Positions 7,660 through 64,000 of a stretch of DNA of 64,000 nt are shown piece after piece (positions within the stretch are counted from its first letter, which is position 1; every line of letters starts with the position of its first letter). The DNA lies in assembly GCA_044892525.1 (NCBI GenBank), contig CM097885.1, positions 24,306,001 through 24,370,000 of the forward strand. The letters run 5' to 3'. The notes beneath the pieces are model-generated. The model saw nothing but the letters and a program-made list of their open reading frames with translations, searched no databases and was not told the DNA's origin. The DNA is from Schmidtea polychroa (taxonomy: Eukaryota). The translations under genes were made by a program, and so were the position numbers.

Positions 7660-8430
7660 ACTTTTATGACCAAATTAAGATTATAATTTATAGTCTTTCA
7701 GCTAATATAAGTTTATAATTTATATTTTTATGAAGTTAAATTTATAGTTTATATTTCTAAAGCTAATATAATTTTATAATTTATACTTTTAAGTTTATAA
7801 TTTATATTTTAGGAAGTTAAGTTAAATTTATAGTTTATATTTTAAAGCTAATATAATTTTATAATTTATACTTTTAAGTTTATAATTTATATTTTATGAA
7901 GTTAAGTTAAATTTATAGTTTATATTTTAAAGCTAATATAATTTTATAATTTATATTTTTATGAAGTTAAATTTATAGTTTATATTTTAGAGCCCATATA
8001 ATTTTATAATTTATACTTTTAAGTTTATAATTTATATTTTATGAAGTTAAGTTAAATTTATAGTTTATATTTTAAAGCTAATATAATTTTATAATTTATA
8101 CTTTTAAGTTTATAATTTATATTTTATGAAGTTAAGTTAAATTTATAGTTTATATTTTAAAGCTAATATAATTTTATAATTTATATTTTTATGAAGTTAA
8201 ATTTATAGTTTATATTTTAGAGCCCATATAATTTTATAATTTATACTTTTAAGTCTATAATTTATATTTGGTGAAGTTCAATTTATAGTTTATATTTCCA
8301 AAGCTAATATAATTTTATAATTTATATTTTTATGAAGTTAAGATTATAATTTATAATTTTTATCGTCAATACAAATTTGTAATTTATAATTTCAAGAAAT
8401 TAAATTTATAATTTATACCTTTATAACTAA
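7660..8430. repeat. AT-rich satellite-like tandem array with higher-order structure
   Basis: Repeated TTTATA(A/G)TTTATA subunits. The variant AGCCCATATA recurs at 7991 and 8221, giving a 230-bp higher-order period. Confidence 0.9.
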
Positions 8431-16273: not shown

Positions 16274-19200
16274 ATGAATGAAAGTAAATTTTTTAATTTT
16301 ATTTTCCATTAATCTATTTGATTTATAGAATTAAATTCGATTTTGTTATTTAATAAGTAAATATTTATAGTTTTTTATAATTGATTTTGATTTATAATTA
16401 TTTAGAATTGAGAAATCCGTTTTAAAAACACCCAGGTAACACTGTAATCTGAATATATGTTATAATTGATATTTTAAGTCTTAAGCGACGACGAAGTTTA
16501 AAATCTATCAAGTTTGCTAAATGTTGTCTAGGAGCAAATTTAAAACCTAAAACTCAATATATTGGAGATAGGTTAACAATATTCTATTATTTAATGCAAA
16601 TAATAATAATTTCCCCATTTAGAATAATGGCACACAGAGGCGTTATGAATTTTGAAAATATTGAAATTGGTTTATATAGAAATTCAATCGATACTAATTC
16701 AAATTATCAAGAACTATCTATTCCAAATTTAATTGAAAAAACAATGAGACCATCTCGGAAACGATTGTTAAAATTAAGTATTCACCATGAGTCACCTTCA
16801 TCAGATGAGAAGCTACAACAATTAATTTCCCAAAGCCAAACTATCAAACGGAAATTCAATCGACACATATCAATTGTAAGAATAAGTTTACTTTTTTAAA
16901 ACTTGTATTACGATTTTTTATTTTAATTTAAATTTTTTTGAATGTAATAATAATTGTTTTCATCAGCCCTCCCACACCATTTACCGATCTCACCACGGTT
17001 ATATAATGAATTACTATTTTTGATGATCAATTTGACTTTCTCAATACAAATTGACGCTAAACTCCACTTTCGCATCAAGAAATCTTTTTTTTCAAGTCTT
17101 TAAAGACATACCATCACGAATTCGAAATTTTGAGGGCATTTCATAATTAGTCAAGGATTATAATATGAAAATTGAGATAGAATGTTTCTAAAGAAAAACA
17201 AATTCTCCATGAAAAATACTGGAGTTATTCAATTAGCCAATAAAAAATTTGGAATTATTTGATTGGCCGGTAGGAAATTCCGGTATTTTAGGCAGGAAAT
17301 CAAAGCAATTTTTCACAAATACAGAAAACTTAATCAATTAAATATTGCTCAATTTTATTTATGGTGTTTTTTGTCAGTTTTCTAATAATATACTCCCAGG
17401 ATTTGGATCAGGAACCGGAGCTTAGGAATTAAACCCAATCTGGCTCCGGTTTCGATATTTTATATGTATTTTTTAACAAAAATATTTACTTCTAAAAGAC
17501 AAAATCAACTATACGGATATTTTATCAAATTAGCCAGTTTGAAACTATAGCAACAGTTACGATAACCCTTGGTGATGTTTTATTTTTTAACACCTTCAAA
17601 ATACTCACCAATGTCGGTATGAATTTAGAAAATGCCCATAACGTCATGGAATCGCATTTCAGGTATGTATTCACCGTGATAACTATCATTCTTCTCATTA
17701 CCGCGGTTTCGAAGTTGGAGCTGGAACCGAAACATCATGAATATAGACACTTTAACCTTCGTTTCACCAAGCTCATTGACCTCCCAGAATCGCTGGAGTT
17801 GATGTTCCAGCTCTTTCTAACTTGAAAACCTCGTATTGGAACTTCTAACTCTAACTATTTCCAATCCACCAATACAAGTCCATCCTTTGACCTGATCGTA
17901 TCAGTACATATGTTATGGATGGAAATTTTATTCCTTTTACATGATTCCATCCAATTTTGATCATTCTTTAGTTTATCTCTCTTAAACTATGAGCAACCTA
18001 TGCTACTCCCATTACATTTGATCTTTCACAAACACCCTAATCGACACTCCACAAGTTTAATATTCCTGACTACCACATTTTCAATAATAATCATTAAAAC
18101 TAACACGCTATTTTCAAATATATCAGAACATCATCTAAATATGCAGCAACACCGTTATACAAAATATAATCAAACAGTATGTGCATAAGTCTTTGGAAAG
18201 TTGCTGGAATTGTGGATAATCCAAATGGCATTTGATTGTAACAGAACTGTCCTTTCTTTATAGAAAACGCTTCATCCACATGTACCTGATAATATGCCTG
18301 CCCCAAGTCTAGGGACGAAAAAACTGAAGATCCAGACAGAGAATCGAATATTGTTTGGGGATCTGCCGTTGGAAAAGTGAATTTTTCAGTAACTTCATTA
18401 GCCTTCCTAAAATCTTGACACATCCTGATTGATCCGTCTTTCTTACCTACCACGACCGCAGGTGAGTTCCATGGGCTTTGACATTTCCCGATAATGCCCA
18501 TTTTCAATAATTTCATAATCATATCGTCCACTTTTAATTCCATCTTTATAGCCATGCGCCTAAGATTTTGAATAATGGGATTTCCAGACGTTTTCATAGT
18601 ATGATTAGTACAACCTATATCAAAATCTGATTCCATGAAGATCGTACTATACATGGTTACCAACTGCACCAGTTTGGGTCTGAATTTGGTCCAAAAACAT
18701 CCAGCGCTTTTTGACATCGTTCGGTATCACTGTAGCTAACACCAACCGTATCTGAATCAGGCATTATGCTCTTTTTCCATAATCCCCAGTGTTTCATGTA
18801 CTACCACCATGCATTTACATTTACAAACACGCCTTTACTTTTCAATAAAACAGGAATCGTTCTTAAACTATAGAAACTTGTTCCGATCTTCCACAGTATT
18901 TGCTCTAAATTCGTCAAAAGGACTTGTTTCCTAGTAACCCAGTCTAAAATGCAGGTAAACCTTCGCATATTTCACACAAAAATTAAAAGATGTTAACCAT
19001 GTTTCATATTCAAACAGTTTGTTTTATTTTTGGCTTAGTAACCTTCGCTTCACTCCAAAATGTTAACATAATGCACATTTAATTGGCATAAAATTTGCGT
19101 TTATAACCAGTGTTCTAGGAAATGAGTCTTTATTGTTTTTTTTATAAAGAAATAACAAAATGAATCTCCTAAATTTTTAAGCATCCTGAAAGAGTATTAG

Positions 19201-22200
19201 ACGCTCCAGAAGTGTCTTTAGAACATCCTAACATTATGGATTGGAGTAAACAAAACATTATCGCAGTAGCTTTAGGATCTGCTGTTTATTTGTGGGATGC
19301 AATTGCAATTGAAGTTGAAGAAATTATGAATTATGGTTCAGCGAGTCCGTTGAGTATTAGCTGTGTTAAATGGTTTCATGGCACGCAATATAAATCTGAT
19401 CACATTCTAGCCCTTGGTAGTACTGACGGTTCTATAATATTATGGGATTCCAAAAGGAAAACAAAAATACGAAAGATGTATTCTTCTGATCGCTACCATC
19501 GATCTGAAGTGATATCTCTTGCTATCAAAAACAATATCTTGTCAATAGGTAGATCTTGTGGTAAATTGGAGCATTATGATATTAGGCAGAACTCTAATCA
19601 TGTTCCAGATTGGAATAATAATCAGGTTTGGTTATTTTAGTAATATAATACTTCTTAAATGATTTTAATTATAAATATATATATATATTAATGAAAGCTC
19701 TGATGAAATTCATGTTAAATAAATAAAAATATTGATCTATAATAAATATAATTTTAATGATTTCAATTTCTACTCAAATTCAATTATAATTAAAACATTG
19801 ATTTGATAATATTAAAATGCAAAAATTTCGGTATTTATGTTTGAAAAATTCAATTTTCTTTATTGATAAAATTCCAGCGGGAAATTTGATTAAAACTTGA
19901 TTAAAAAAATTATTTATATTCTTCTGTGCGATTTACCGTTGATTTCGGGTTCAGTGAGTTTATAAATAGCAGCATACAATTCAAGTGCAATTTATATAGA
20001 TTCACCTTGCATCAACATTTTAAATTTTATTCTATCCCGTTGTGTTATAGCTATAGACAGAGAGTACTGATATTGATGTAAGTAGCTATAATACATTCCT
20101 GAGAATTTGTGACTGGATTTAAGATCCGTGGAATTATTGTTTATATCTGAAGTTAAACTTGACTGGCTATCTTCAAAACTTTCTTTCACAGAGGATAAAA
20201 TAATCAATCAGCAAACAAGGGAAAACGAAATTAATGTATCAATTATCCGCCAACAAAAGTTAATTGTGATTTGAAAATTTGAAACACGTGTAGAAAGACC
20301 AAGTGAACATAATACATTCAGTATATATTTAAATAATAAATTTTCCCCCGAAGGGTTGTTAACAGTAGAAACAAATGTTTTTTCAAAAGTATTCAGATAT
20401 ATCCGGATCTTGCATCTAAATGATTAATCATCTAAGAACATGTAACTGGATTCAAATCGGCAGTTTTAACATATAATAAAACATATTAACGTTTCTATTT
20501 TCCCTAACATCTTCAATTGTATGTTTTTTAAACATTTTTTATTAATGAATTTAGGTATTAAATTTTAATTGTTTTGATATTTTTTATTGGCATCAATCTC
20601 GATTGAGAAATATTGATTATTTTATTTTAAAATTGAAAATCAATAACTTTAAAAACATTATTTATTATTTTAAGTCATTTCTATTTGTCAAAAAGCTAGA
20701 GATCTTTTGAGCCATATTGCTAAGAACTAAGAATTTTGAAATCTGTAATTTCTAGAAAGTCCATATATTGTTTTGTAGGGGATTCAACTCTATTAAATTA
20801 TCGAGATTATTTAGACCACTGGAAAAATCGGTAATAATTCAAAATCCCTTTTCAGGGAATTTAATTTTGCAAACCCATAAATTTATTAAAATTATTTAAG
20901 CGCTGTTTTTAAATACTTGCCAAAATTCAAAATGTTTAAGAAACTGGAATTGAAAAAATTGATAATTAAAATTTGTAAAGTCTATGTGCAAATCAATCTG
21001 AAGTGCAATAGCATTAATTAATTAATGAAATTCATAATTTTCTTTATAAAACAATGAGTAACCATGAAAAAACTTCGGTTCTTTTAAAATGTTTTTCACT
21101 GATCATTTTCTTAAATTGGTAAAATTGACTAGTAATATTGAAGACCTTGAAAAAACATGTGTATGAATTGTGCAAGGTTTTTTGATAGTGTTACACTTCG
21201 CCAAAATAAATCTGAATGTCCTATCTTTGATAGTCGTATGAGGCATAAAGGAAAATATAATTCTACTATAAAAAATATTGTTGTAAATACTAGTATCCCA
21301 GGTTGAATGAAAGTGAATTTAAAATATGCTCCAAAAGGACTTCTAATACTTTCTGATGATCAAATTGGTCAATTTAAAGACTTTAAGGTTACTCCGAAGT
21401 TTTTAAGGTCGAATAAAGTAGACACTGGTGATTCGCAGTATGGTATTTTAAATGTATTTTTCGCAACGTCAGACCTGTCATATTTACTTCAATATAATCA
21501 GATATAGACAGAAAAAAATTTCCCATGCGATGGCCTTATCAGAAATTTTGTAGTTTGTTCAATGAACTTTGAATTTGATAGAATTAGATTTTCGAGCATC
21601 CACGAATACGGTTAATGTAAAAATTCGTTCACAATTTTATGCCATGAATTTAATGTGTTAATCTTTATTAATGGGAGATTTCTTATATTTGTCGTCTCTA
21701 AAATTTGTCTATACACTTCTAAGATATGTGACTAAATGAAGTTCTCAACTATTATTTCAAGCCGGTTAGTCAAAGAAAAACAGCGCCATGGACAGTCACT
21801 TGAGATCTATAAAAGATAGAGTAAATACTTTAACGAAATTAGATAGGTTATCAATAATTCGATTTTCAGAAAATATTGAAATAAAAATGTCATGTCGATT
21901 AAAATTAAAAAACATCAATTAATTATAGAATAGGATTATTTAACGTTTTTATTTTTAACGTTTTATGTTCAACTGAAAACATTTCCCAAATGTAGTTTTT
22001 AAAAGCAACATTTCAAATCAATAAAGTAAAAGAAATTATATAATCACATAATTTTTAAATTACATACATAATTAAGACATTATTTGAACATCACTTATAC
22101 GATATAATTTTTCCAAATTTTGTTGAAAAAAATGTCCAAAATAAATGACCCGCTATAAGCCGACCTATTAAAAATGAAATTCTCTTATTTGCTTTTCATC

Positions 22201-23746
22201 GACACCAAATTCACGAGCTGCTGCACAATTGTTGTTAGCATTTGCAAACCTAACATGAATAATTACACGATTAAACTTTTGACTTAATTCTATAGCAGTT
22301 GTAAAAGAAATGTTATGGTAAATCGAATGAATTATGGATCATTCGATAGTAAAATCAATTTTCAGATAATATTGAAATAGAAATGTTATGTCGATTAAAA
22401 TTAAAAAAAACATCAATTAATTATATAATAGGATTATTTACAGCCATACCGTTTTATGTTCAACTGAAAACATTTCCCAAATGTAGTTTTTAAAAAGCAA
22501 CATTTCAAATCAATAAAATAAAAGAAATTATATTATCACCTAATTTTTAAATTACATACATAACTAAGACATTATTTGAACATCACTTATACGATATAAT
22601 TTGACAGGCAGAAAAGGTATCAACAGGTAGAAAAGAAAAATTAATAGATTTAACATTGATTATTAAAAATAAAATAATCAAAAATAACTTATTTTTATTA
22701 TAAAAACTTTTTTTTCAAATTTCACTACCACTGGTTTCTTTTCCATTGTATTTATTTGAAAATATAATTTCAAAAAAATTATGTGCTATATATACTTGCA
22801 TAGAAACCGACCCTCCAAATTTTGTTGAAAAAATGTCCAAAATAGATGACCCGCCTATAAGCCGACCTATTAAAAATGAAATTCTCTTATTTGCTTTTCA
22901 TCGACACCAAATTCACGAGCTGCTGCACATTTGTTAGCTATTGCAAACCCAACATGAATAATTAAACTTTTGACTTAATTCTATAGCAGTTGTAAAAGAA
23001 ATCGAATAAATTATGCATCATTCAATAGTAAAATCGAATTTCAGATAATATTGAAATAAAAATATTAAAATGTCGATTAATTAAGGGCAAACATAATAAT
23101 TTTATAATTTATTCATTTGATTTCTTCAGACCATTCTTCACCTAAAATGGTCTCTCGATTTCCATTATCTTGCAGTAGTAGCACAAGATTCTCATTTGTC
23201 ATTCTGGACAGAGAATAAACTCTATTCGTCACCTTTGATTTTGTTTAATGACAAAATCAATGATGTGGCCTGGAGTCATAGAGATGCGCATATTTTCCTG
23301 TGTTGCACTGCATGCGAGAAAGGCGAATTAAAACTCTACAACATTTCTCAAAGGATTTGTCTACGAACAATAAGCACAGATAGCAGTGTAATTTTAGCTT
23401 TCTTTCCCTTCTCTTATTGGAGTTATCGGCTTGTTCTTTATTCTAGATATCGTGCCTTCTGTGGAGTGACATCTATGAGGAGGTGGCGATTATTTCCGAG
23501 GATAAGGATAGTTTTCGAATTAGGATATTGCACGATGATAGCTTGCAACCGATTATCGAATTAACTGGTCATATAAAATCAATTTTATGCATGGCTTCTA
23601 ACCCTACCGGGGAAGTTATTGCAACCATTGGTGAGGATGAACAAATCAGACTTTGGAATTGTTTCCAGTGTCCAGATGTGAAAAAATTGAAAAATAATAG
23701 AAATCAAAAATCTAGTTTATTAAAGGATTTAGAGAGATTTCGTTGA
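16274..23746 (+). CDS. CDC20: Divergent CDC20/Fizzy-family APC/C activator (WD40), paralog A, multi-exon
   Basis: Spliced model reads MNEKLNS...GD|RIMAHRGVMNFE (C-box variant), HPERVLDAPEV..NIMDWSKQNIIAVALGSAVYLWDA, LKWSLDFHYLA, ELTGHIKSILCMASNPTGEVIATIGEDEQIRLWNCF, ending ...LERFR*. TATA at ~16248. Large TE-filled introns at 16876-19180 and 19626-23129. Confidence 0.88.
16960..19070 (-). mobile_element. Degenerate Ty3/Gypsy element in a CDC20-A intron; RT fragment 18100-18717
   Basis: SPWNSPAVVVGKKDGSIRMCQDFRKAN, FSSLDLGQAYYQ, MPFGL, FQRLM and YLDDVLIY. A PPT-like GGGAGGG lies near 16970 and a CA-TTT-TGG PBS-like junction near 19060; these boundaries are tentative. Confidence 0.85.
21857..23082. 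repeat. Local tandem duplication (~490-bp unit) within a CDC20-A intron
   Basis: 21857-22110 repeats at 22352-22600, and 22113-22400 repeats at 22815-23082 (CCAAATTTTGTTGAAAAAATGTCCAAAATA...ATAAGCCGACCTATT). Confidence 0.9.
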
Positions 23747-31096: not shown

Positions 31097-32941
31097 ATGA
31101 ATACTTCCAATAAAAAACGAATATCCGTGCGATTTGATGAAAATACTATTTCAAGGTGATTTAATTTAAAATATTTCTATTTAATTTTTTTTCAAATTCA
31201 GTCGCAGAGAGGAATCAAATAAAATACACAATGTGAAAACGAACAGGTAAGGATTTTTCATATTTTCATTATAATTATTTTTGTTTAGAAAATCTACTGA
31301 CATTTTGAGAAATCGCTTGAAAAGTGAATTTAAAAAAACTGTAAGAAATGCTAATAAAAATAATTACAAAGGCGACCGGTAAATTTTGTCTTTAAATTAT
31401 TAACTCTTACTTTTTAATAGGTTTTTTGCACATAGAGGTGCAATGAATTTTGACAAAGTTTACAATTCTCATATGTCTGATTTGGTATGTTTAGCTCACA
31501 CCGATGTAAATAGTTTAGATATAAGCGTGACAAAAAAACGTTCCAGAAAAATAAAATACAATTTAAATCAAAAGTCTCCCTCAAATCTTCAAAAGGTGGA
31601 TAATTTCATTAAAAGTGAAAATTCTAAATTTATGAAACTTAATAGAATTATTCCCACGGTAATATATATGATTTTTTATTTTCTAAAAATATCTTTCAAA
31701 GGTTCCAGAAAAAGTACTGGTGGTATTGAATGAGATTAGTGAAAATGAGGATAGTATATATGAGGATAGTGAAAACATAGTTGAACACATACAAACTTGT
31801 TGGCTTGAAAATGGTCTTTTAGCTATTGGACTTGATCATCGAGTATTTTTATGGAATGAGATATCGAATTGTTCCAGCAAAATACACCACTACACTAAAA
31901 GTTCTGGCAAACACATCTGTTCGTTAACTTGGGTTGGGTATGATGACACTAGAAATATCCCAAAGTTGGCAATAGGAAATAACGTTGGGGAATTGGAAAT
32001 AGTGGAAATAGATGAATTTTTTAAAGTTAGTGACACTTCAGTGGTATGTGAGAAAACTATCACACATAAAATCGTCATGAAAGACAATACTCTGATCTCG
32101 GCATTAGCATTTGCAAACAATATATTAACTATTGGATTGGAATCCGGCATTATCCAACATCATTCATTAGAATCGTTCTCCACTTCATTATCGAAAAACA
32201 AATATCATACAGAAGTCAGTGGAATATTACAAATTTTGATATTAATATTTGTAAAATAGGAAATTCATAAAATGGTCTGGTCGGTGGATAAAATCCATTT
32301 GGCAGTAATTTCGAAAGGTGGTATTTTAACCGTTTGGGATTCTAACTACCTCAATAAGAAACCGGTGATAAAATTGCACGATAAGAATGAAAGAATTAAT
32401 GATATTTCATGGAATCCCAAAAATTCGAAGCAATTAGTATATTGCAGTGGGAAAAACGATTGCCAACTGAAGATAATTGATGTAAAGTTAAAGCAATTTA
32501 TAAAATCAGTTAATACAGATCAAAGAGTAAATTTTATCAATTATAATATTGATTATAATTCAATATTATTTATTAATATAGTTGAGGTTTATATATTGGA
32601 GCAAGGTTGAGAATGAAATCATTTGCGTTGCCAAACCACAGATACCTAATCCTATCACAGATGAGTCTATTCATGAGGATTTGGATTATTCTAAAATTAT
32701 TCTTTTTAATCAGAAAACTCTTATGAAAATTTCAGAAATAAAATGTATGTCTAGATTTGAACATTTATATTGTGTTTTAAAAATATTTAATATAGGTAAC
32801 GAAAATCAGTACGGATTGACTAGCAATGGTAATGGAGATCAGGTTGTCACAGTTGGAAGACATGGTGAAATTAGAGTTTGGAAATTATTTCCTATCAAGA
32901 AATCACAACCAATGATGGATTTTTATTCGAATTTGAGATAA
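31097..32941 (+). CDS. CDC20: Divergent CDC20/Fizzy-family APC/C activator (WD40), paralog B, compact 8-exon gene
   Basis: GDR|FFAHRGAMNFD C-box variant split by an intron at the same site as in paralog A; PEKVLVVL; LLAIGLDHRVFLWN; WD40 repeats; VVTVGRHGEIRVWKLF; C-terminal ...FYSNLR*. Introns are ~40-55 nt. Confidence 0.82.
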
Positions 32942-46865: not shown

Positions 46866-49800
46866 CTAATTGCTGTTCTTATCATCCTCTGGACGCTTCT
46901 TCCGATTGAAGTTCTGTTCAACAGACGCAAATCGATCGTTTGGAAAATTGAAACTCTCCTCAACCAATCTGTTTCTCACGTGATCTGAGACTAGTTCCTG
47001 GAAGGAATTGGTGAGACTCGATGGGAACTGCTGGGTATCGAGCGAATCATTGGAAACGACACCGGCCGACCGAATAGCATGATCGATGCAATCGTGCATC
47101 AGCTCGGGCACTGGTTGAATCGATCGATGTCGTTGATTGAGAATTATTTTCCTTCGTTTAGGAGGCATTCCCGATACGTATGCGTCACTATATGGGATTC
47201 CTATTGTTTGCTGGTCAACTGGGACATTCGAGTCACGAGATACTATATCTATCCAATCCGGTGGAAGGACTGATTGCCAAGAGTTGCCATTTGGTGTGTG
47301 ACTCGCAGCATCCTGTTGGTAAGAACAGACATCCATAAATTCCGCTACGACACCATCGAGAGGATTGGTAACATCTGTTATTGAGTTAGACTTGATAATG
47401 CTACCAGCCAATGAATCAACCATCTAAAATCAGTTATCCTTATAATATTTCAAAAGAATATGATAACAAAAAATCAATTTACCGCTTCCATTACAAATAT
47501 GGGGAAAAGAATTAATTATTATTAATATTATTTATCAATTTCATAATGCAATCAATTACAAAAATAATATTAATATATAAATCGATTCCTGAATTATTAT
47601 TAAATAGATAAATTAGTTCATTTATTTTCATTGTGAGTATATATGAGTATACGTAACATAGATGGTAGATAGTAGGTAAGCTATTATGTAGTTCATTTTC
47701 GGGCCCATAAATTCTAATATAATAAATAATCTCACATCTTCTAGCGAATCAACATTCGTCATTATCTGATCGCTATTATCGGCAATTTGACTATTGTTTC
47801 CAGGAGCTTTCAATGAGCTTTCACCCGATTCCAAATTCAAGAACACAACATAGGCAGACAAAACCGTTTCTCTAAGCTCGGAAAGCTGCTCGGGTCGTCT
47901 AAACAATCGGGAATTCCCATTCTCAAAAAGCCAATCTAATCCAAACGTATTTCGACTCTGATTGATAAATTGTGATAGATAATCATTTGAATCGTCTGGA
48001 AATATATTCAATAATGAATGATCGGATCTGATGCATAGATCAAATGATATTGAATACCGCAATGGCGGGAGAAGCAAATCATTTAATTATACATGATAAA
48101 TATTCATTAATTTAATGAAAATTTATTGAATGAGATAAATTATTATTATTATTTTTAATATTATTTTTTTATTTATATTTTATTATTATTTTATAATTAA
48201 AATTAATATTATTTAATTTTAACTTTAATTTTATTTTTTTAATTTCATTAATTTTACCATTATTTTTATTATTATTTATCATTATATTATAATTAATATT
48301 AAAATTATTTATTATTATTTTGTAATATTAATTTTACTATTATTTTTTTCATTTATATTTTAATAATATTTATTAATATTAATTTTACTATTGTGTTTTT
48401 TATTATTTTTTATTTATCATTATTTTATAATTAACATTAATATTATTTCATTTATTATTTATAAATATTAATTATACAATTATTATTTTATTTATTTCAT
48501 TAATTTTAGTATTATTTTTATTATTTTATTATTTTTTATTTATATTTTAATAATATTAATTTTACAATTATTATTATTTATCATTATTTTATAATTAATA
48601 TTATTTATTATTATTTTATTTTTTATTTATTAATTATTATTGTTATTTATTGATATTAATTTTACCTTTATTTTTATTATTATTTTACTTATACTTTATT
48701 ATTATTGAATAAATTATAATAATGAAATTAAAAATAATTATTATAATATAATAATAAATGCTCACCAGTTGATGACATGAGCGAATCAATAAACGCTCGG
48801 ACCATATATTGCCGTAGCTCGTCATTATCATTGCAAATTATATCTAATAATGCCAAAGTCTCGTTGTGATGGGAAAACATGCTGTTCATTAGTAACTGAC
48901 CGAAACCAATATCAGTTGGGCTCCTAAGGATCATGTCGACAACAACTCGTGCGTGGTGCTACAACAACAATCAATTAGACCATATAATATAATATAAGCA
49001 GTACTCGGTTGAGATTATTTATCGTTTGGTGTATATCGATATTTTCATTGAAATTCCCTCTAGCATCCTCGCTCAGACCATCGACTTGTTCATCGGTTCT
49101 CAATCTGTCAAATATCGTCATGTAGACCCGGTTGAAGGATTCCAAATCCATGACAACATTATCCAGCATCCGCTCTCTCGATCCGTTACATTGTAACTGG
49201 TGTGCCATCAGCAAATCCTGCAATGGAATCCTCAACACATTCAATGGGTGGTAGACTCCATGAATGATTTGAGTGATATCGATCATGGTCAACCGGTTGA
49301 CAACCAACTGAATGATCTGATTGGTAATATTGTTCACGGTGTCATTGTCGTGGTTACTGAATATATCTATTCGGTGATAAACAGATGTTGATATTTGGTC
49401 TGAATGGTTATTGTCAATATTACCTGGAAACAACTGACCGAGAGGCATGTCAAGATTGATTGTCCCAGTACTGGTAAACGATTGTAACAATCTTGTTAGG
49501 TCGTTTTGAGGAAGCGAAGGAATAATAATAGGAGGATTGGTAGCAGCAGATCGTGACGAAGTTTGAGAGGAGGCTAAATAGGGAGAAAATAAATGAAATT
49601 AACTCGATAAATTATAAAAAAGGAGTGAAATTGGGGAGAGTCAAATTTCTTTGGATAAATGGCAAAATCATATTTATACCAGTCGGATTTACAGTAATAT
49701 CTCATTCTCGTTATCAACCGATTGGCTGCAGTTATTACCATTTATATTAAATTGGGGTAGTGGAGCATAGGATATAAGGTAACATTGGGCCAGTGGAGCA

Positions 49801-52500
49801 TATGATATAAGGTAACATTGGGCCAGTGGAGCATATGATATAAGGTAACTTTGGGCCTGTGGAGCATATGATATAAGGTAACATTGGGCCAGTGGAGCAT
49901 ATGATATAAGGTAACATTGGGCTAGTGGAGCATATGATATAAGATAACATTGGGGTAGTGGAGCATATGATATAAGGTAACATTGGACAAGTAGCGTGCA
50001 CGAAATCGGGAATTTTTCTCAATCAGATTATCAGAGACTAAATACCTGTCATAAAACCTTATTAATTTTCCAATGGCAAATGCAAAAATAGGCCTCTGAG
50101 AGCAGGCGTAGCAGGTATGCAATGCGACAAAATATGCTCATTAGAACCGGTTAGGTTTGAATAATTATATGTAAAAGTCAATTTTGCAAGGCCATATTGG
50201 TAAATGAAAAGGTCGGACAGAATATACTTGCTGTCCCGTAACCAGGTCGCCCTATTCCCACCAAATAAAACAATATGAATCATTCTAAGTCAGAGTTGCT
50301 AATAGAATATATGAAATCACATTGTATTATCCGCATGAAATGTATATATGGGAATATACATAAACCACATGGGAAAATCAATAAATATTTCCAATCAGCA
50401 TTAATTCCATGGATATGAAATTTATTTACTGCAATATAATATAAAAAGTCACCGTTATCATTGGTGGTGCTAGGAGTGGCTTGCATCGTGTCTCCGGATG
50501 ATGAGAATATTGAATTGATCAATCCGCCAATGAATGTGCGGACCGGATCGCCTTCCCTGGCATCGGTCACATTAGTGGTCGTGTTAGCAGTTGTAGATGG
50601 TGCCGTGGTGGTGGTAGTCACCACTGGTGACTCAGTGGGGCGCGGGCGACTCCTAGAGCTATCTCTAAACTATATCAATCGATAATTAAATGAATCCATT
50701 ATCAATTGTCTCACCCGAATGCCACCAAATGTCGATATAACCGCTCCAGTCCTGAGATTCGAAGGATTCTGGAAATGTCTCGATTGGCACCTGACATATG
50801 GATCGACATTCTCAATCAATGGCGATCCATTTCTGATAGTCGTGCGAGGATTTGCGCCATTGATCCGTGCCGCCCCACTCGATTGGCCAGGCATAGAGTT
50901 AGTTGCGGTTGAATGGACAAATGAGTCATGCAATGTTGACCGAAACAGATTCTCCATGGTAGCCTGTCCAGGGAATTGTGGCGGTACCGCTTGACGACGA
51001 ATTCGAGCAGTTCCGGCCGGTGTTTCGGTGGTCGGGGTTGGCTGACTCGGCACGGTGCTCGTGGTGACTGGGTCTGAAGCCGGTTGGGATGCACGCCTAC
51101 AACAGAATCAATAATATGTAACATGCCAGCAAGGTTACCCACTCAGTAGTTCTCGTTGCAAACACATGCGTCTGACCACTCGTAACTGGCATCTGAATAG
51201 TCGAATCGACATCCAATCTCACTTGAAACAATTGGGCTGGCATTTCCGAGAAAACGTACAGATATCGACTGCGATCATTACTGTCAAGATTTGTGTCAGA
51301 TGTATTATTAGCGGTTGAAGCATTGCCCTCGGTCGATCCTTCTGATTGAGGTAACCCGCTTTCGCCGAATGCTCCAGTTAATGGAGTGATGTTTTCATCG
51401 ATTGAGGTGCTTGTAGCAGCTTCATTTGTTGGTGTGGCGGTCTCGTTGGCATTTCTATGAACTGGCATTACTCTCGTGTTTGCATTGTATTGGAATTCCA
51501 CCAAATAATCACTCATTATGTGCAACATGTGAGAGAAAAGATGTATATATCGACTAGCTGAATCATGCATCCGTTGCATTTCCCGATCATAATTTGCTAT
51601 ACTGTCCGGCAGATTTTGTCGTCGCAATACATTTTCCCATAATTCCAATTGCGGTTCTGCATCTCGCCACATATCTCGGACGCTATGTACCATGTCGGCT
51701 AAATTATGGATTGGCAAAGGCTGAGCCGACACTTCAGTTATTCTTTCTTCATTTACCCCTAAATCATATGCATTTGCTTGATATAGTCTCTCCCGATCTG
51801 GGCGAGGCGCCGGTAAACTTGGATCTCTAAGATTATCAAGCAATTCTCTGGCTTGTGACATTAGTCTGTGGATATAATTCTGACGCAATCTTGCAAGACT
51901 TAATCTATTAGAACTTGGCATATTTACAGTAATATCTACTCTATTGCCTTCATTATTAACAGAAACCCTGATAAATAACTTAATAATAATAAAAAAATAC
52001 AATCAACAGTTACCCCATAGGATTACTTAATTCGGCAATGTTACCAAAAACATCACTCAGAATATTTCTAATTTGGTCTCGATTAATATCAGAATTTTCT
52101 TCTCTTTCAGTAGTAGTTGTATCTGGAGCTGGTCTATTTTGATTTGGCGGAGGTCTTGTTACCAAATGCATCACATTTCCAGCGACATCTATTTCAATCA
52201 AAAAGTGACATTTAAATCAAAATTTACTATATGAGGACAAAAGGTTATCGTCTTGCAACACGCGACCCTGGAACAACAATCTCTGTCTCTCAACAGCAAT
52301 ATCCTGTAGGTATTTTTAATTAAAATAAAAATTTCTTAAAAACTACCATTTTATGATGAATAATGGCTTTAAATTGCAGAACATTAATCTAAAAATATAT
52401 TACTTAGATAGTACTTTAAACTAATTTTTACATTATCTGGAACAGAAAAATCATGATTCCTTCCATCCAGAGTCTTCACTATCACATTTATCGTACTCAT
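46866..52500 (-). CDS. BAG6: BAG6/Scythe (large proline-rich protein BAT3) homolog, multi-exon
   Basis: N-terminal UBL domain (MSTINVIVKTLDGRNHDFSV..., IAVERQRLLFQGRVLQDD..., MHLVTRPPP); HLFSHMLHIMSD; DPYVRCQSRHF; C-terminal VLPPDWIDIVSRD...PYSDAYVSGMPPKRRK and DRFASVEQNF. Confidence 0.92.
49751..49988. repeat. 33-bp minisatellite (~7 copies) in a BAG6 intron
   Basis: Unit AACATTGGGCCAGTGGAGCATATGATATAAGGT. Confidence 0.95.
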
Positions 52501-55650: not shown

Positions 55651-56143
55651 AGGTAAAATGCATGCTTACCGGTAACCCACTATCAGTCTTAATTTGTTAT
55701 ATTATTTATTATTCTTTTATTTTTGAGTTGGTAGATTTTCAAATGCGTTATTTTCTATTAACTATTTTGGTGATTGCAACTTCTTGTGTTTATCAATTTT
55801 ATTTTACGAGTTTTATATATTCTCAATTTGTTGTGTACTTTACATTGTATTATTTGATGTATAATTCAACTTGATGCGGTTTTCATGCTATGTGTTTTTG
55901 ACTCATTAAAACAAGCTCTCAATTTTTGATTCTAAACAAACATTATCATCGATGGTAAATATGACCCCAGTGTTGTTCAGAAAGCGAAATATTAAACGTG
56001 TTTCAACAACATCAATCTTATTCAACAATATCATCTATCTCCTTAGGTTTCATTATTGTAATTTAAATAATGTATGATAAGCAAGAAGTGAAAGGTTACT
56101 GCTGAGGGTTGCATAGGAATTTACGGTTTTGGTTATGGTCCGA

Positions 56144-56747
56144 AGTAGTATATAGTGAGGACTCCAGGACACTTTCAAGGTCATCCCAATGTCCAGATCA
56201 AATATAGGTAAATAGAATCATTTTTATTTATTTTTTTTTAAAATTTATTTTATTACTTCTATTTAATTTTTTTTTAATTTATTAATTAATTATTTTATTA
56301 TGTTTTTTGTTTTAATTAATTACTTTAGTTAATTTTCAATTTATTACATTTAATTAATTAATTATTTATTAATATTTTATTTTAATTACTTACGTTATTT
56401 AATTAATTTTTTTTTAATTTAATTTTTTTTTATCTATTATTATTATTATTTTTTTTTATTGTTATTATTTTACATTTACATTTAATATATTCTAAGAAGA
56501 GTGTAAATTGTAACAATAATATTTCAATTTGAATAAAATTTTAATTAGTAATAATCATAAAATAAAGCTGTGTTAATTTAAAATAAAATGGGCATTAATT
56601 TTTCAAAACAAAGCAAAGTTTTTCATGATAAATAATAATTCTTACTTAAAACTAATTATCTAAATTAATTGGACAAATGAATTATTAAATGATAAAACAT
56701 ATTTTAATTAACGAAGTCAAATAATTCACAATATATATTTTATTATT
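56144..56747 (+). repeat. Left terminal inverted repeat
   Basis: Reverse complement of 62522-63125 with only scattered mismatches. Confidence 0.95.
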
Positions 56748-56804
56748 AAACCTTTGCATAGATCTCTTCAAGACCTTTCGAATGATGTGAATAAAATATA
56801 ATAA

Positions 56805-56976
56805 AATTTTAAAATACCGCAACGTAATATAAATTTTGAAATACCGCAACGTAATATAAAATTTAAAATACCGCAACGTAATATATTTAAAAAAATTTAA
56901 AAAAAATTAAAAAAAAACCCTCCCCTCCCCCGGGGGTATGACGTCATATGTCTTTGTGACGTCATCGATGACGTCA
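56805..56976. promoter_or_regulatory. Subterminal motif cluster: 3x AAATACCGCAACGTAATATA and 3x CRE palindrome TGACGTCA
   Basis: TGACGTCA at 56939, 56957 and 56969. ACCGCAACGTAAT repeats at ~56815, 56843 and 56870, with a variant at ~58336. Confidence 0.6.
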
Positions 56977-57089
56977 TATGTCTTTGTTCCCGGCTCCACA
57001 CATTACCCTACTCTACTGTTTTTTCTCTCTCTTTTTCACCCATTTGTTTCTTTTCTCTTTGTCCGATTGGGATTTAAGTGTAACCATGT

Positions 57090-58110
57090 ATAGGCAGAAT
57101 TTAATTCTCTACAAAATGGCTCAATTACAATTTTAGTTTGTCACTTTGTGTGTAATACACACATGTTTTTACGATAAATTTGTATTTTTCGCGCGGTTAA
57201 CGTAATTTTCTCGGATTTTTATTCATATATTATATAGGCAAAATTTAATTTTCTATAAAATAGCTTGATTAAAAATTATGTCTCGTATGTTGTGTGTAAT
57301 ACACACATGTTTTGACGATACATTTGTATTTTTCTTACAGTTAACGTAATTTTCTTAAGATTTTATTCATATAATATATAGATAAAATTTAATTTTCTAT
57401 AAAATAGATTGATTAGAAATTATGTATCTTGTTTTGTGAGTAATACACACATGTTTTTACGATAAATTTGTATTTACTATACGTTAACGTAATTTCCTTG
57501 GATATTTATTCATTTATTATAGAGATAAAATTTAATTTTCTATAAAATGGATTGATCTAGAGTTTAAAATGTTGTATTATTTTATTACTTTGTTGCAATA
57601 TTTTTATAATCTTATAACAATTTGCTTAAATATTTTACACCTGTTGAAATATTTCCGAAATATGTTATTACTTTGTTGTAATTTACTGAAAGACTTCACA
57701 ATTTATTACAATATTCTTTTTAATTTGTTGTCCGTCTTCGAAATAATATATTGATTTGTCTCAATTAACATCATTATTTTATTACTTTGTTGCAATATTT
57801 TCTAATTTTGTTACAATTTGCTTAAATATTTTACAACTGTTGAAAATTTATCTGAAAAACGTTATTACTGTGTTGCAATTTGATGAAAAATGATATTACT
57901 TTGTGGATTCATCACATATTTTTATAATCTTGTTACAATTTGTTTAAATATTTTATAACTTTGTTGGGATTTGATAAAATCATTTATTAATTTTTATCAT
58001 TTGCTTAAATATTTTACATCAGTTGAAATATTTCCGAAATGTCATTACTTGGTTGTAATATATATTTTTTCATAATGTTACAATTTGATTAAATATTTCA
58101 GAAAAAATAA

Positions 58111-58180
<70 letters not shown>
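57090..58180. repeat. Internal tandem repeats of the element (~145-bp x3, degenerate longer units, (AAT)n)
   Basis: GTAATACACACATGTTTT at ~57152, 57296 and 57440; CAATTTGCTTAAATATTTTACA recurring across 57615-58100; AAT microsatellite at ~58106-58180. Confidence 0.88.
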
Positions 58181-58181
<1 letters not shown>

Positions 58182-58352
58182 GAAATTATGAATATGTTGA
58201 AAACTATGAAAATGTTAAAAATAATCATGAAATTGAGGCAAAAATTATAAAAATGTTCCTGAAATTATTATGAAAATGTTAAATAAATAAACTTTAGCGT
58301 CAAAATGTGTTTTAAAATATATTGAAGTTTTAAAATACTGCAACGTAATGCA

Positions 58353-58490
58353 TTTATTTTTCCTACCCCTTCCTTGATTTTGATTGGTCAGAATATATTT
58401 ATTTTTCCTACCCCTTCCTTGATTTTGATTGGTCAGAATTTAATCATGTGTAATATATAAGCAGTAACTTTTCAAATGTTTGTCATTTAA
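58353..58490 (+). promoter_or_regulatory. Pol II promoter of polB: tandem CCAAT-box units, TATA box, Inr-like TCATT
   Basis: Duplicated ~45-bp unit CCTACCCCTTCCTTGATTTTGATTGGTCAGAAT; TATATAA at ~58454; TCATTT ~28 nt downstream. Confidence 0.65.
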
Positions 58491-58511
58491 ACTTTTAATT
58501 TAACTTATATA

Positions 58512-61500
58512 AGTGAATAATATTTTTATTCTCTATCTAATATTAATGATTATTTTCTTTTAGTGAACGGATGCAGTTTATATAAATTTTGTATTGCCGA
58601 AAGTCATGAAGATGTGGAGAATTGTAAATCAGTTACATCATCATATTTCAAGATAAATGACTCTACCTTATCGGGTTACATATGTCCGGAATGTCTCATT
58701 ATATCACCAGGTAGGTGGTTAATGTTTGTACGACAACACGGACACCATCTTAGAAGATTCGAAGAAACGAAGAGCAGGATGATCACTAAAAGTAATACTC
58801 TTTCTACTATTAACAATTATTAATTTTTTATAGTACAATCGAAAATGAATACATCATACGATCCTAAGCCGATTAAAGAATATATTACAAGTTATGTTAT
58901 TTAAGTTGTTTAATATTAATTATAAATATAGTTAGACAAAACTCTGGCACCACAAAACGAAAGTCAATATTTTACGGAAATGGAGACTCTAACATACAAT
59001 TGTGTCCACGTCGGGAGTCTGACTTAAATGGTTCTCGTGTTGAATTGACAAGCGATGTATCTGCAATTAATTCTCCTGACATTTTTGTTCCAGATTGTCT
59101 CATCAAAGAAATAGAAGATCATATTCAACGAATGGGGACAGTAAAAATCCAATTTGGACTTTGTGCAGAGTTTATCAAAGAGGATGGTGAAATTAAAAAA
59201 TGGTGTTTGTCAAATAAAGCAATTACAATGTCATCTTCATTTATTAATGATGGAATTGAAAAATTAAAAGAAAAGTTGGAGAAATACACTCAACAAAGTA
59301 GTGGGTAGAGAATTCATAAAATATTAGAAGTTACTATGATTTTAACTAAATTATCAGACATAATACATGTATCTGGTAAGATTATTTACATTATTATATA
59401 TATAAATCAAGATATTTATTTAGGTTCAAGTTACATTAAAACGCCAAATTACCTGAAAAACTGTCTGGCTTTAGTTAATGTACACAACAATGATCAATTC
59501 TGCTTTTTATATGGCATACTGGCTGTATTACATTATGATGACATAAAACACCACAGAGAAAGAGTAATGAAATATAATTTAAGTGGTAATATATATATAT
59601 TTATATTTATATATTTATATTTATACATATATTATTTTATTTAGAGTTAAAATGGAAATCAGATTGGTTTCCAATGAAGTTGGTTAACATTTGCCAATTT
59701 GAAGCAATGAATCCTAATCTAGCGATCAATGTTCTCAAATATAATAAGGATCCAATTAAACAGAATAGTGAAAATATTTTCAAGAATCCGTTCGTTGACT
59801 TGGCATATAGAAGTACTTCGACGGGATCTCAGATATATCTCCTATTGATTGAAGAAGGTAATATTTCTTTTAATCATTAAAAATATTAACTAAATTTTAG
59901 AATTAAATTATCATTATTTGGCTGTAACCAATCTCGATCGACTGCTCAATTACAGAGATAGAGTAGAAGGAGTCAGAATCCAATCACATTGGTGTCATAC
60001 GTGTCTTCACGGGTTTCGAAAACGTCCTGCTTTTGAAAGACATATAGGTCTTTGTAGGAAGAATGTGGAGCGGACGACTCTATACTCAATGCCAGAGAAT
60101 AAATATATCGAATTTAAAGACTGGAGTAAAACTATAAAACAGCAGTTTGTTGTGTACGCGGACTTTGAATCAATATTACCTCTAGACGACAAACACTTCC
60201 AAAAACATGAACCGATTGCATCTGAATTTGTGCTTCTTCATCAAGGTCATCCGATTCGAAATGAAACATTTGTTGGGAAAAATTGTATCATTCAGTTTAT
60301 ACACGCATTGGATGATATAGCTAAAGACATAGTTTATCCGTGGTATAAAATTAATGGATCGAATGAAATGATGGAACTCACTTGGGAACAGCAGGAAGAA
60401 TTTACGAACCAAACTCATTGCTACCTTTGTAAAAAGATTATCAATATACCTGTTCGGGATCATGATCATTTTACCGGTCAATATCTCGGAGCAGCATGTC
60501 AAGATTGTAATTTGGCTAGAAGAATTAATCCGTCTTTACCTGTTGTATTTCACAATCTTCGTGGATATGACATTCATCATATATTAAAATATGCAATTGG
60601 AAAATTCCCAGATTGGAATTTAAATGTTATTCCACAATCAACAGAAAAGTTTCTCACACTTACAGCAACATCGAAAGGCAGAAGAATTAGATTCATTGAT
60701 TCTTTACAATTTTTAAATAGCAGCTTGGCAAATTTATCAAAAAATTTACCATGTCTTCCACTGACCTCAGATGTTTTCGAATCACAGATGATGACTTGTA
60801 AAACCATTTTTCCTTATGATATGGCTACATCAATGGATGTTTTACAGTCAATAACAGAATTACCTGCAATTTGGGAGGGAGTTAGTCAAGAAGATTATAT
60901 ACATGCAAATCGAATCTGGCAACAATACAACTGTGAGACATTGCTAGATTACATGCTAATATATCTCAAGTTGGATGTTTTTCTGTTGGCCGATGTTTTT
61001 GAAGCCTTCAGAGAAAAAACATTTGACGAAGATGGACTTGAGGCTCTATCGTTTGTTTCCATACCCGGATTAAGTTGGGCATCAGCTATTAAACAGTTAC
61101 CTGAACCGATAGAACTTATTCAAGATCCAGAGCTTTACCGTTTATTTGAAGCTGGTATTCGTGGTGGAATGACATTTATCAACAAACATCATGTTGAAGC
61201 TGATGTATCAACACAAATGTCATACCTAGATGTTAATAATTTATATGGATGGGCTCTGTCGCAAAAACTTCCTGTTGGTGAATTTAGATGGATAAATGAT
61301 CAGACTGAAATGAATGGTATTATTAAAAGATGTGCAAATGGGGATGAGTTTGATGGAGATCGTGGATATGTTTTGGAGGTTGATATCGTCATTCCTGATA
61401 GTATACAGGATAAACTAGATAATTTACCTATAGCTCCTGAGCTTTGTTATCCGCCTGGAAGTAAAGTTGAAAAGCTGTTGTTAACTCATGAGCCTAAGAA

Positions 61501-62505
61501 AAACTATGTAGTTAATGGTAGAGTTTTGACAGAGTGGTTGAGTTACGGCGCAAAAGTCACAAAAGTTAATCGTGCTGTAGAATTCAAGCAAGTGGCTATT
61601 TTCAAAAGATATATTGATTACAATACCAAAATGAGAGCAGCTAGTACGGATTCGTTTCAGCGAGATTATTATAAGTTAAAGAACAACAGTTTATACGGTA
61701 AAACTGTGGAAAACTTGAAGAAACGTATAAATTTGAGATTATGCAACAAAAGCAAAAGATTGATAACTTATTGTAGTCATCCTATGTTTCGTCGTAGCAT
61801 CAAGATTGCGGATGATCTCATTGCTGTTATACTCAATAAATAAATTGTGTGTTTAGATAGACCAATGTATATTGGACAAACCGTACTTGATTTATCCAAA
61901 CTTCGCATGTACCAATTTCAATATAAAGAGCTACAGAGTTATAGAGAAGAATTCATTGTCAAATTAATATCGTAGCCGGTGACACAGATTCCTTCTTTTT
62001 AGAGTGTAAAAATGTAGATTTACGCTTACAACTATATCCAAAAATGATTGAAGATGGGCTCCTAGATACTTCAAATTATCCAGTGACCGATCCGTTGTTC
62101 TCTGATAAAATTTGTTCTGTAATCGGGAAAGTTAAGGATGAGAATAAAGGAAATCAATATAAAGAATGGGTGTTTCTTCGACCCAAGTGCTACTCACTCC
62201 AAGGCGATAAAAACACTCTAAAAGCCAAAGGAATAAGACTAACAAACTCTAATCTTACACATGAAGCCTATAAAAAAGTGTATACTGATGGTGGAACAGT
62301 GAGCATCCCACAAAAAAGAATAGGAAGTGTCAATCATCAGTTGTATACTTTCATGACAGAAAGACGAGCTCTCCAATGTTTGGACGATAAAAGGTATTGG
62401 TACAATTGTAATGAAAGCTATGCCTACGGTCACTATAAGATTCGTCAAATGCATATTGCAACTGCTATGTCTAGAAATGAATGCAAATCGAAACAAGCAC
62501 TTTAA
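58512..62505 (+). pseudogene. polB: Protein-primed family B DNA polymerase (Polinton/adintovirus type), 6 introns, ~1236 aa when repaired
   Basis: ExoI VVYADFES, ExoII FHNLRGYD, ExoIII YLKLDV; Pol A YLDVNNLYG, Pol B KLKNNSLYGKT, Pol C AGDTDS; LRPKCYS, KAKGI, LDDKR. EndoVII-like insert CYLC..RDHDHFTGQYLGAACQDCN. Lesions: TAG at 59306-59308 (SSG[W]), TAA at 61841-61843 and a 1-nt frameshift near 61953. Confidence 0.93.
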
Positions 62506-62521
62506 CAATTAAATTTATGTG

Positions 62522-63125
62522 AATAATAAAATATATATTGTGAATTATTTGACTTCGTTAATTAAAATATGTTTTATCATTTAATAATTCATTTGTCCAA
62601 TTAATTTAGATAATTAGTTTTAAGTAAGAATTATTATTTATCATGAAAAACTTTGCTTTGTTTTGAAAAATTAATGCCCATTTTATTTTAAATTAACACA
62701 GCTTTATTTTATGATTATTACTAATTAAAATTTTATTCAAATTGAAATATTATTGTTACAATTTACACTCTTGTTAGAATATATTAAATGTAAATGTAAA
62801 ATAATAACAATAAAAATAAATAATAATAATAGTAGATAAAAAAAATTAAATTAAAAAAAAATTAATTAAATAACGTAAGTAATTAAAATAAAATATTAAT
62901 AAATAATTAATTAATTAAATGTAATAAATTGAAAATTAACTAAAGTAATTAATTAAAACAAAAAACATAATAAAATAATTAATTAATAAATTAAAAAAAA
63001 AATTAAATAGAAGTAATAAAATAAATTTAAAAAAAAAATAAATAAAAATGATTCTATTGACCTATATTTGATCTGGACATTGGGATGACCTTGAAAGTGT
63101 CCTGGAGTCCTCACTATATACTACT
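62522..63125 (-). repeat. Right terminal inverted repeat
   Basis: Begins 17 nt after the polB stop and ends in CTACT, followed by the TSD GTCCGA. Confidence 0.95.
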
Positions 63126-63577
63126 GTCCGATTGTCGTATTTATGATCGCTGGTAGGTATGATGATCTGGAAGTGAATGAAATATGCTTAATAGAAGGTT
63201 CTAGTTTATTCACTGGAAATTTAATTCCATGGGCCGGTAATACATATTACCGGTAATTTTCAGGGTCCTATGTTGTTGATTTTAATATCCCTGTTGTGCG
63301 TGATGAACTACATGGCCTAATTATATACGGATTAAGCCTCATCTGTCTTAAGTCTGTTTATCATACCTCTGACTCCCTGACTCAGTACCAGGCTGTCGAA
63401 GATTAAGATTTGATCAAACGATTTAATACAAACTCTTACATTGTAATTTATATTACTGTTAATTATATTACAAGGGCAAAAAGAAAAAGGCGACAATCAA
63501 AAGGATGAAATTCAAAAGTACGTATTAGTAAAACAAACAATAAAAGAGCGAATATAATTAATATTATAATTAATATT

Positions 63578-64000
63578 AGTAGTAGGATGTGTCACCTCCA
63601 GGACACTATAAAATAAGTTGTATAAAACAAGTTAAGTAGTATAAAATAAGTATAAATTAAGTTAAAATTTAAGTAGGTCAAGTTAAAATTAAGTAGATCA
63701 AGTTAAAATTATGTAGGTCACGATTATATAGTTTAAAAATATGTAGGTCAAGTTAAAATTAAGTAGATCACGACTATATAATTTAAAATATGTAGGTCAA
63801 GTTAAAAGTAAGTAGATCACGACTATATAGTTTTTAAAATATATATAGGTCAAGTTACTTTAAACATGTGTCACCTCCAGGACACACACATATATATATA
63901 TATATATAAGTAGGTCAAGTTAAAATTAAGTAGATCAAATTAAAATTATGTAGGTCACGACTATATAGGTATTAAAATATTTAGGTCAAGTTACTTTAAA
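63578..64000 (+). mobile_element. Left terminus of a second, related Polinton-type element (runs off the window)
   Basis: AGTAGTA followed by CTCCAGGACACT at offset +18, the same spacing as at 56144. Then ~19-20-bp tandem repeats (AAGTAGGTCAAGTTAAAATT) and a second TGTGTCACCTCCAGGACAC at ~63867. Confidence 0.65.

Follow-up and report, generated by a model that had tools for sequence, protein, structure and literature searches.

A palindromic, Polinton-derived family of elements with a DNA polymerase as its only recognised gene in Schmidtea polychroa, and a decayed 7-kb copy of it

A 64,000-nt stretch of the genome of Schmidtea polychroa (assembly GCA_044892525.1, CM097885.1:24,306,001-24,370,000; hereafter the window, whose positions are used as coordinates, CM097885.1 being C1 in locus labels) contains an element of 6982 bp (56144-63125) with AGTAGT/ACTACT tips, flanked by GTCCGA hexamers and carrying a gene for a family B DNA polymerase that is primed by a protein (pPolB). 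Searches of the genome (781 Mb, four large contigs) revealed that it belongs to a family, here called family A, whose usual form is a palindrome of 12-14.5 kb with two arms, each bearing a five-intron pPolB that reads outward, around a loop. The results support the existence of a lineage which carries the polymerase, lacks integrase and virion genes and has moved many times, with target-site duplications (TSDs) of 6 bp. Our interpretation, which we hold to be probable, is that family A is a Polinton-derived lineage of palindromes which replicates through a hairpin and is integrated in trans, and that the window copy is its remnant. The 7-kb copy, to which a preliminary description of the window had drawn attention, is an ordinary decayed element and the interest lies in family A.

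The order of family A elements is terminus, outward PolB, putative promoter and repeats, loop and then the mirror image. In the copies fetched the arms were about 6.0-6.6 kb long and the non-coding loop roughly 0.25-1 kb, and in 13 elements of 12-14.5 kb the two arms were 97.5-99.97% identical. The best 150 PolB matches in the genome (95-100% identity) were mostly arranged as minus-then-plus pairs. An exact 26-base PolB motif gave 810 matches (reversed control, 0); among the first 100 listed, 64 formed 32 divergent pairs within 60 kb, 30 of these within 12 kb; same-strand pairs were absent and three neighbours were convergent. Likewise, a 22-base terminal motif was matched 599 times at no more than one mismatch (control, 0), tandem fragments near the start of C1 included, and a hand count of the first 100 matches listed gave 24 facing pairs: 13 of 11.9-14.5 kb, nine shorter and two longer. 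Fourteen terminus pairs fell within the PolB-listed interval, with a divergent PolB pair in ten, one motif in two and none in two; the divergent pair was present in all eight elements there whose termini delimit 11.9-14.5 kb. Family A amounts to hundreds of chromosomal insertions. Both tips were in view at 19 of the 25 loci tested, and a clear 6-bp TSD was present at 17 of them, ambiguous at one (TA microsatellite) and absent at one; three further short copies had a 6-bp TSD (3/3). The 21 hexamers tallied, including that of the window, were all different. Several subfamilies have tips of their own, identical at both ends of the element.

Some features of these copies were recorded apart. The centres of three elements (L040, L034 and L035) have loops turned partly palindromic by expansion of 27-31-bp GCAACGTAAT repeats, and this motif is common to the loop repeats and the putative PolB promoter region (window 58340). 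Near the contig end, at 0.59-1.34 Mb of C1 (L048-L050), tandem arrays have a unit of ~4.4-4.6 kb that holds the outer ~1 kb of the family A arm. Two copies (L074-L075, L111) carry an inserted reverse-transcriptase element, either within the inner arm or at the centre.

The gene content was analyzed by tblastn with 11 integrase, ATPase, capsid, protease and TBP queries from two complete host Polintons against 82 family A stretches (687 kb) and the window element. The search detected no integrase, ATPase, capsid or protease gene belonging to family A itself in the 82 stretches, which are a sample of family A loci and not a census, although very remote homologues could escape; what matched was a nested group-2 Polinton (L032), which has an AGTAGT tip of its own, and three short fragments. 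The two stretches L071-L072 were left out of this count, being the source of queries and having another nested complete Polinton bounded by its own terminal inverted repeats (TIRs) of 1.46 kb. In addition, 19 unpaired PolB loci were read 10 kb upstream; many had a partial mirror arm, and no integrase block was seen at any of them on that side. In the window element the 11 queries gave no match and the only Pfam-positive open reading frame (ORF) was pPolB (PF03175, E=1e-32), so that the preliminary description was right in reporting pPolB as the only gene and integrase and virion genes as missing. Its proposal that integrase is supplied in trans is the best reading for family A, and not for the 7-kb unit to which it had been applied.

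The pPolB of the window keeps all the exonuclease (Exo I-III) and polymerase (Pol A-C) motifs, and its endonuclease-VII-like insert scores below the curated cutoff. This insert could act as a cruciform resolver, but such a role would not be specific to family A since complete host Polintons carry the insert too. Alignment to the uninterrupted PolB of a complete host Polinton predicted five GT-AG introns in the 5' part of the gene, three donor positions having been shifted one base from the raw alignment. The internal exons (57, 444, 162 and 213 nt) are all multiples of three. The length of the 213-nt exon was constant in 13/13 measurable family arms and that of the two preceding exons was kept in 12/13 and 10/11 arms; two introns varied across arms, at 46-57 and 44-149 nt. 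This pattern suggests that the family A pPolB is spliced, with five introns of the spliceosomal type. The 5' exons, in which no start codon was located, encode a zinc-finger-like start, followed by a region with homology to the N-terminal portion of a complete Polinton's PolB and with a vOTU-type Cys motif; their alignment identity with the N-terminal part of the complete host PolB was 26-45%, with Cys and His motifs present. The main exon was open in 25/31 aligned family arms. Among the best 150 PolB matches the longest open frame was of at most 872 codons, and the complete host Polintons have uninterrupted PolB frames of 1312-1402 codons. No unexplained long ORF was seen in the interior of the window element, and a PDB sequence search gave 0 matches. 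A sigma-70 promoter scan was at chance level, this bacterial model not fitting an animal locus.

Complete Polintons are plentiful in the host, with about 36 near-identical integrase matches in one family and more than 90, among the matches listed, in another. One of the complete families, family C, starts at window position 63578, 450 bp to the right of the window element, and encodes ATPase, RVE integrase, protease, a TBP-like protein and PolB. Its terminus gave 697 matches at two mismatches at most, and the integrase region is present in at least 40 copies. When the first 30 terminal bases were compared in register with those of family A, family C agreed at 22 positions and the other three families at 17, 14 and 12, which makes family C the likely integrase helper of family A. 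The family A PolB was 54-56% identical to those of the four host Polintons. In a phylogeny made with these four and metagenomic proteins it fell outside the host clades and grouped with two metagenomic proteins (SH-aLRT 99; a quick tree, no bootstrap). Since it forms a separate clade, no sampled complete family is the direct parent. A search of viral contigs found no relative, and one of metagenome contigs gave a single 4.1-kb contig with an uninterrupted PolB of 61% identity and no gene context. In the complete host families PolB adjoins the right end and reads outward; fold-back of this end therefore gives the layout of family A. The left half of a genome can be found mirrored as well: at three loci of family B, picked for their paired integrase matches (L094-L102), ATPase, integrase, capsid and protease genes form palindromes without PolB, with arms 98.9-100% identical and a 6-bp TSD in one of the two checked.

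Several other observations concern the complete elements. The family C copy that begins in the window (63578-64000, continued in L091-L093; C1:24369578-24401600) is 32 kb long, contains an inserted hAT transposase and has, between its protease and PolB genes, an internal inverted repeat of 4.6 kb (93%). Family B has two tandem minor-capsid-like genes at L103, L107 and L109. A TBP-like ORF (PF00352) occurs in complete Polintons (L071:5893-6360 and L091:4208-4843, both on the minus strand) and is lacking in family A. Complete Polintons of two groups are nested in family A PolB genes (L071:3929 to L072:8967; L032:1761 onward), and one family A copy lies 62 bp upstream of an integrase match at C1:15395489. 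It may be that Polintons are preferred targets of other Polintons.

We propose that a single strand of family A, once displaced or excised, would snap back into an almost fully paired hairpin of ~6.2 kb, the duplex end of which would be the origin for protein-primed synthesis by pPolB. Synthesis through the stem, the loop and the second arm would produce a linear duplex of twice the length whose two ends are identical, and the RVE integrase of a complete Polinton, family C being the best candidate, would insert this duplex and make the 6-bp TSD. Passage through the hairpin would keep the arms alike, and an integrase that works on two ends would make the dimer the inserted form. Passages of 10.1101/2024.03.18.585575 place terminal-protein and vOTU domains within the Polinton pPolB; with both, one gene could supply primer and polymerase. 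The length of the dimer may perhaps be set by its fit to the helper capsids (complete family C elements are about 16-18 kb). The family probably originated when the right end of a complete Polinton, the one that bears PolB, snapped back, and would have gained its introns later. A bolder version, tentative and in our opinion rather doubtful, is that family A is a self-sustaining nuclear replicon, namely a protein-capped hairpin of ~6.5 kb with spliced pPolB only that would integrate as a head-to-head dimer via a helper; with the polymerase-less left-half palindromes it would make up a Polinton system split into complementing parts, with a size perhaps fitted to the helper capsids.

The evolution of the arms was studied on the 2.6-kb main exon of 15 elements from the best 150 PolB matches (E74 was omitted for having no single 2.4-kb match). 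The two arms of each element differed at 0-9 of 2602 bases and arms grouped by element in the tree; 100 private variants were in both arms and 26 in one arm. The ratio of non-synonymous to synonymous change (pN/pS) in PolB between lineages was near 0.2 (range 0.12-0.38), as obtained from open frames alone, near-identical pairs being uninformative. Variants common to two or more elements were 58 non-synonymous or stop to 84 synonymous, the neutral ratio being about 3.9:1 by site count, and three copies with a single aligned arm had 33 to 8. At the level of sequence, these data show that purifying selection acted on the PolB lineages that were transmitted. Furthermore, two loci with different flanks share eight derived variants and also the codon at which a stop stands, yet differ at 22 sites, which suggests that a PolB-dead sublineage kept moving with PolB in trans.

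Several of the data weigh against hairpin replication with integration in trans, or narrow its basis. The private variants found in both arms were purified only in part (53 non-synonymous or stop against 32 synonymous, a stop included) and did not differ from those private to one arm (16:10; Fisher p=1.0), a pattern that suits conversion in place equally well; this both-arm class fits either trans-complemented replication or such conversion. The 15 elements and the open-frame pN/pS bias the analysis to young, selected copies. Furthermore, 36 of the 100 listed motif matches were unpaired, and a complete parent may lie outside the sample inspected for such loci, which comprised 19 of them on one side. 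As for the helper, the agreement of another complete family with the family A tip at 17/30 means that its identity is not pinned down, and the family C PolB is not the sister of that of family A.

Arms alike would also be expected if they were homogenised by chromosomal arm-to-arm gene conversion, as occurs in Y-chromosome palindromes, family A being then an ordinary two-ended duplex with very long TIRs and no hairpin. The partly purified both-arm variants with their stop, and the same shortened open frame in both arms of many elements, agree with this explanation. However, the 604-bp ends of the window copy have diverged (five substitutions, two gaps) about as expected from 7 private columns in 2603, nested insertions are confined to one arm, and trans-complemented replication accounts equally for the relaxed variants; we consider this explanation unlikely.

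It was also considered that family A palindromes could be defective snap-back by-products, repeatedly regenerated from an unsampled complete master Polinton with an A-type PolB. Family B does yield half-genome palindromes (at three loci chosen for paired integrase matches), a master would likewise account for purifying selection, and the loci inspected are a minority of the ~810 motif sites. Nevertheless, an own integrase or virion gene was found in 0/82 stretches, no open frame exceeded 872 codons in the best 150 PolB matches, and no full-length coexisting parent with an A-type PolB was found in these matches, the 19 unpaired loci or the 82 stretches. In addition, all sampled lineages were palindromic despite their different tips and a pS of up to 0.12, and many elements share one loop position, while independent snap-backs should fold at varied points. 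All this leaves the master Polinton a poor candidate, with a small probability.

Regarding the window copy, its inverted ends (56144-56747 and 62522-63125) aligned over 604 bp with 598 identities, five mismatches and two one-base gaps. The preliminary description had correctly reported ~604-bp TIRs, AGTAGT ends and a perfect GTCCGA duplication. It had erred in taking these TIRs for complete ends, as the counterpart of 56144..56747 extends into an arm of ~6 kb in full-length copies and the 604 bp are the residue of such an arm. The interior maps to the family loop (56748-56988) and then to one complete arm. In five full copies (L073, L114, L120, L063 and L040) the sequence that matches the loop starts at a distance of 3 nt from the inner end of the arm, the point that corresponds to the left-end join of the window copy, and the deletion ends at the left edge of the loop. 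A 37-mer from this junction had one match in the genome at two mismatches at most. The 7-kb layout is not the mobile unit, because its junction is unique in the genome. As to pPolB, it is a pseudogene here, two stops (59306, 61841) and a frameshift (near 61950) interrupting it; the breaks at 61841 and ~61950 were found in 0/53 other family arms and the stop at 59306 in 1/71. The preliminary description, which had presented an intact replicon with a single pPolB, had the gene right and overlooked both its introns and its decay. It is very likely that the window element is a full family A palindrome in which one deletion, extending from base 604 up to the stem-loop boundary, removed the greater part of the left arm, the remaining PolB decaying afterwards. 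The deletion may have followed insertion or taken place in the last replication.

Copies with one PolB or with partial deletions were seen elsewhere too, the breakpoint differing from copy to copy, and one-PolB derivatives with short inverted ends were found at L041 (934 bp), L132 (546 bp) and L119 (about 590 bp). Counted from the tip, L036, L119, L132 and the window copy break at 545-616 bp, close to the polyA signal and where the AT-rich terminal segment has its edge; this zone is possibly a deletion hotspot, seen in four copies. Two repeated deletion forms, L033/L044 and L034/L035, were taken as candidates for separate insertions and rejected, since their common flanks make them segmental duplications.

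The preliminary description had viewed the 7-kb, one-gene element with 604-bp TIRs as a complete minimal replicon, mobilised at its own size. In favour of this, the tips of the window copy are intact and its TSD perfect, and the short-ended derivatives recur (L041, L132, L119) and might move in trans. However, the junction is single-copy, each short derivative has its own breakpoint, the repeated deletion forms are segmental duplications, the PolB of the window is broken, two of its breaks being private, and of the 23 other terminus pairs listed on C1 none was of the window copy's size, the nearest (7.5 kb) being differently built. A count of ~7-kb copies with other TSDs had been proposed as the check, and the window junction occurs nowhere else in the genome; all other copies being full-length Polintons had been named as the result that would speak for a one-off deletion, and the 7-kb copy is indeed unique, although the others are ~13-kb two-PolB palindromes and not complete Polintons. 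The minimal replicon is largely refuted in this assembly and must be regarded as very improbable. Finally, there is barely any likelihood that the lost arm, or the palindromes, are long-read sequencing or assembly artefacts of long inverted repeats, for although no more than 3 nt separate the end of the deletion from the stem-loop boundary and polymerase slippage is possible there in vitro and in vivo, each end has a matching 6-bp TSD and an outer flank of its own, a few substitutions set the arms apart, single arms harbour other, nested elements and the two ends of the window copy differ at 7 places.

Comparison with known systems allowed classifying family A as Polinton-derived, with Polinton-like replication and integration and without integrase, virion genes or the TIR/core layout. 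With a selected polymerase gene kept in every arm, it would be self-replicating at least in part. Among the closest systems known are Polintons/Mavericks with an endonuclease-VII/HNH-type insert in pPolB. Like canonical Polintons/Mavericks, which have AG/AGT-repeat tips, TSDs of 5-8 bp (usually 6 bp) and a protein-primed family B polymerase, it shows AGTAGT tips, a 6-bp TSD and a pPolB with Exo and Pol motifs and the nuclease insert. Unlike them, it has no RVE integrase, packaging ATPase, C5 protease or major and minor capsid genes, and it has two five-intron PolB genes per element. Canonical elements of 13-25 kb have a unique multi-gene core between TIRs, the length of which is 100-1500 bp according to passages of 10.1101/2023.08.22.554363, whereas family A has arms of ~6 kb and a core of ~0.25-1 kb. 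A racket-shaped single-strand intermediate is proposed for Polintons in part of PMC4196379, and the fold-back of family A could be this idea taken to its limit.

Snap-back genomes of adeno-associated virus (AAV) are close in form: sections of PMC8235507 describe them as self-complementary, with the left or right genome part only, symmetric or looped, and helper-dependent. Family A is also self-complementary and matches a fold-back of the right end of a complete host Polinton, next to which PolB lies, but the AAV forms are transient, hairpin-primed parvoviral by-products and family A is integrated, presumably protein-primed, multi-lineage and under selection. Linear plasmids with pPolB (yeast pGKL type, mitochondrial) are extrachromosomal, in cytoplasm or mitochondria, while family A has introns, a putative Pol II-type promoter and TSD-flanked chromosomal insertions. 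Hairpin and palindromic deletion derivatives are known for pGKL1. In passages of 10.1101/2024.03.18.585575 linear pPolB plasmids are treated as Polinton-related replicons that lost the morphogenetic module. The Foldback/Galileo transposons (see PMC3573991) share long, internally repetitive inverted arms with family A, but are cut-and-paste transposase elements without polymerase.

No palindromic or two-PolB Polinton was found in the literature searched, although the Polinton founding paper (2006), Repbase or supplements may describe one. Polintons of planarians are piRNA targets (excerpts of PMC8532177), a Maverick expansion in Dugesia is reported with no structure given in the accessible part of 10.64898/2025.12.11.693146, and the available portion of the PMC11410931 main text does not mention Polinton, Maverick or palindromes. 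One Polinton survey, by its text in part (10.1101/2023.08.22.554363), required pPolB to be linked to integrase, and surveys with this demand would miss families like A. Polinton replication and movement are known largely by bioinformatic inference, the racket intermediate being a proposal. With almost its whole length in inverted repeats, a selected polymerase alone and hundreds of young insertions, a family such as this is genomic evidence for fold-back intermediates and integration in trans. It also makes the fold-back model testable, as a hairpin monomer, a dimer and protein-capped ends of defined size are predicted.

Table 1. Features of the family A copy in the window
Feature	Position	Strand	Basis
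Target-site duplication GTCCGA, left	56138..56143		Sequence
Left-arm remnant, 604 bp, TIR-like; AGTAGT start; subterminal CTCCAGGACACT box	56144..56747	+	Alignment of ends
Central loop of the family palindrome	56748..56988		Comparison with full family A copies
27-bp loop repeats carrying GCAACGTAAT	56799-56885		Sequence
Three TGACGTCA boxes in the loop	56939-56976		Sequence
Sole complete arm, ~6.1 kb	56989..63125	+	Comparison with full family A copies
144-bp tandem repeat, 3.3 copies; kept in inner part of family arms	57089..57556		Sequence and family copies
(AAT)25 microsatellite	58106..58180		Sequence
Putative promoter of the Pol II type with GCAACGTAAT, a duplicated 45-bp stretch that holds two CCAAT boxes in reverse, and TATATAA at 58454	58340..58460	+	Motif match alone
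pPolB 5' exons (predicted): 58564-58710, 58834-58890, 58932-59375, 59424-59585, 59645-59857	58564..59857	+	tblastn to uninterrupted host Polinton PolB
Main exon of pPolB, with Exo I-III and Pol A/B/C motifs and an endonuclease-VII-like insert	59901..62505	+	Profile and motif match
Outer 604 bp of right arm; AATAAA at 62525, ACTACT tip	62522..63125	-	Alignment of ends
Target-site duplication GTCCGA, right	63126..63131		Sequence

Elsewhere in the window, tandem arrays with units of 140 bp (1513-2446), 230 bp (7646-8416) and 33 bp (49751-49986) were identified. By resemblance, we take the ORFs at 13029-14720 (+) to be piggyBac-type transposase look-alikes, and those at 19173-19640, 23121-23564 and 31687-32941 are presumably look-alikes of Cdc20/Fizzy-like WD40 proteins.

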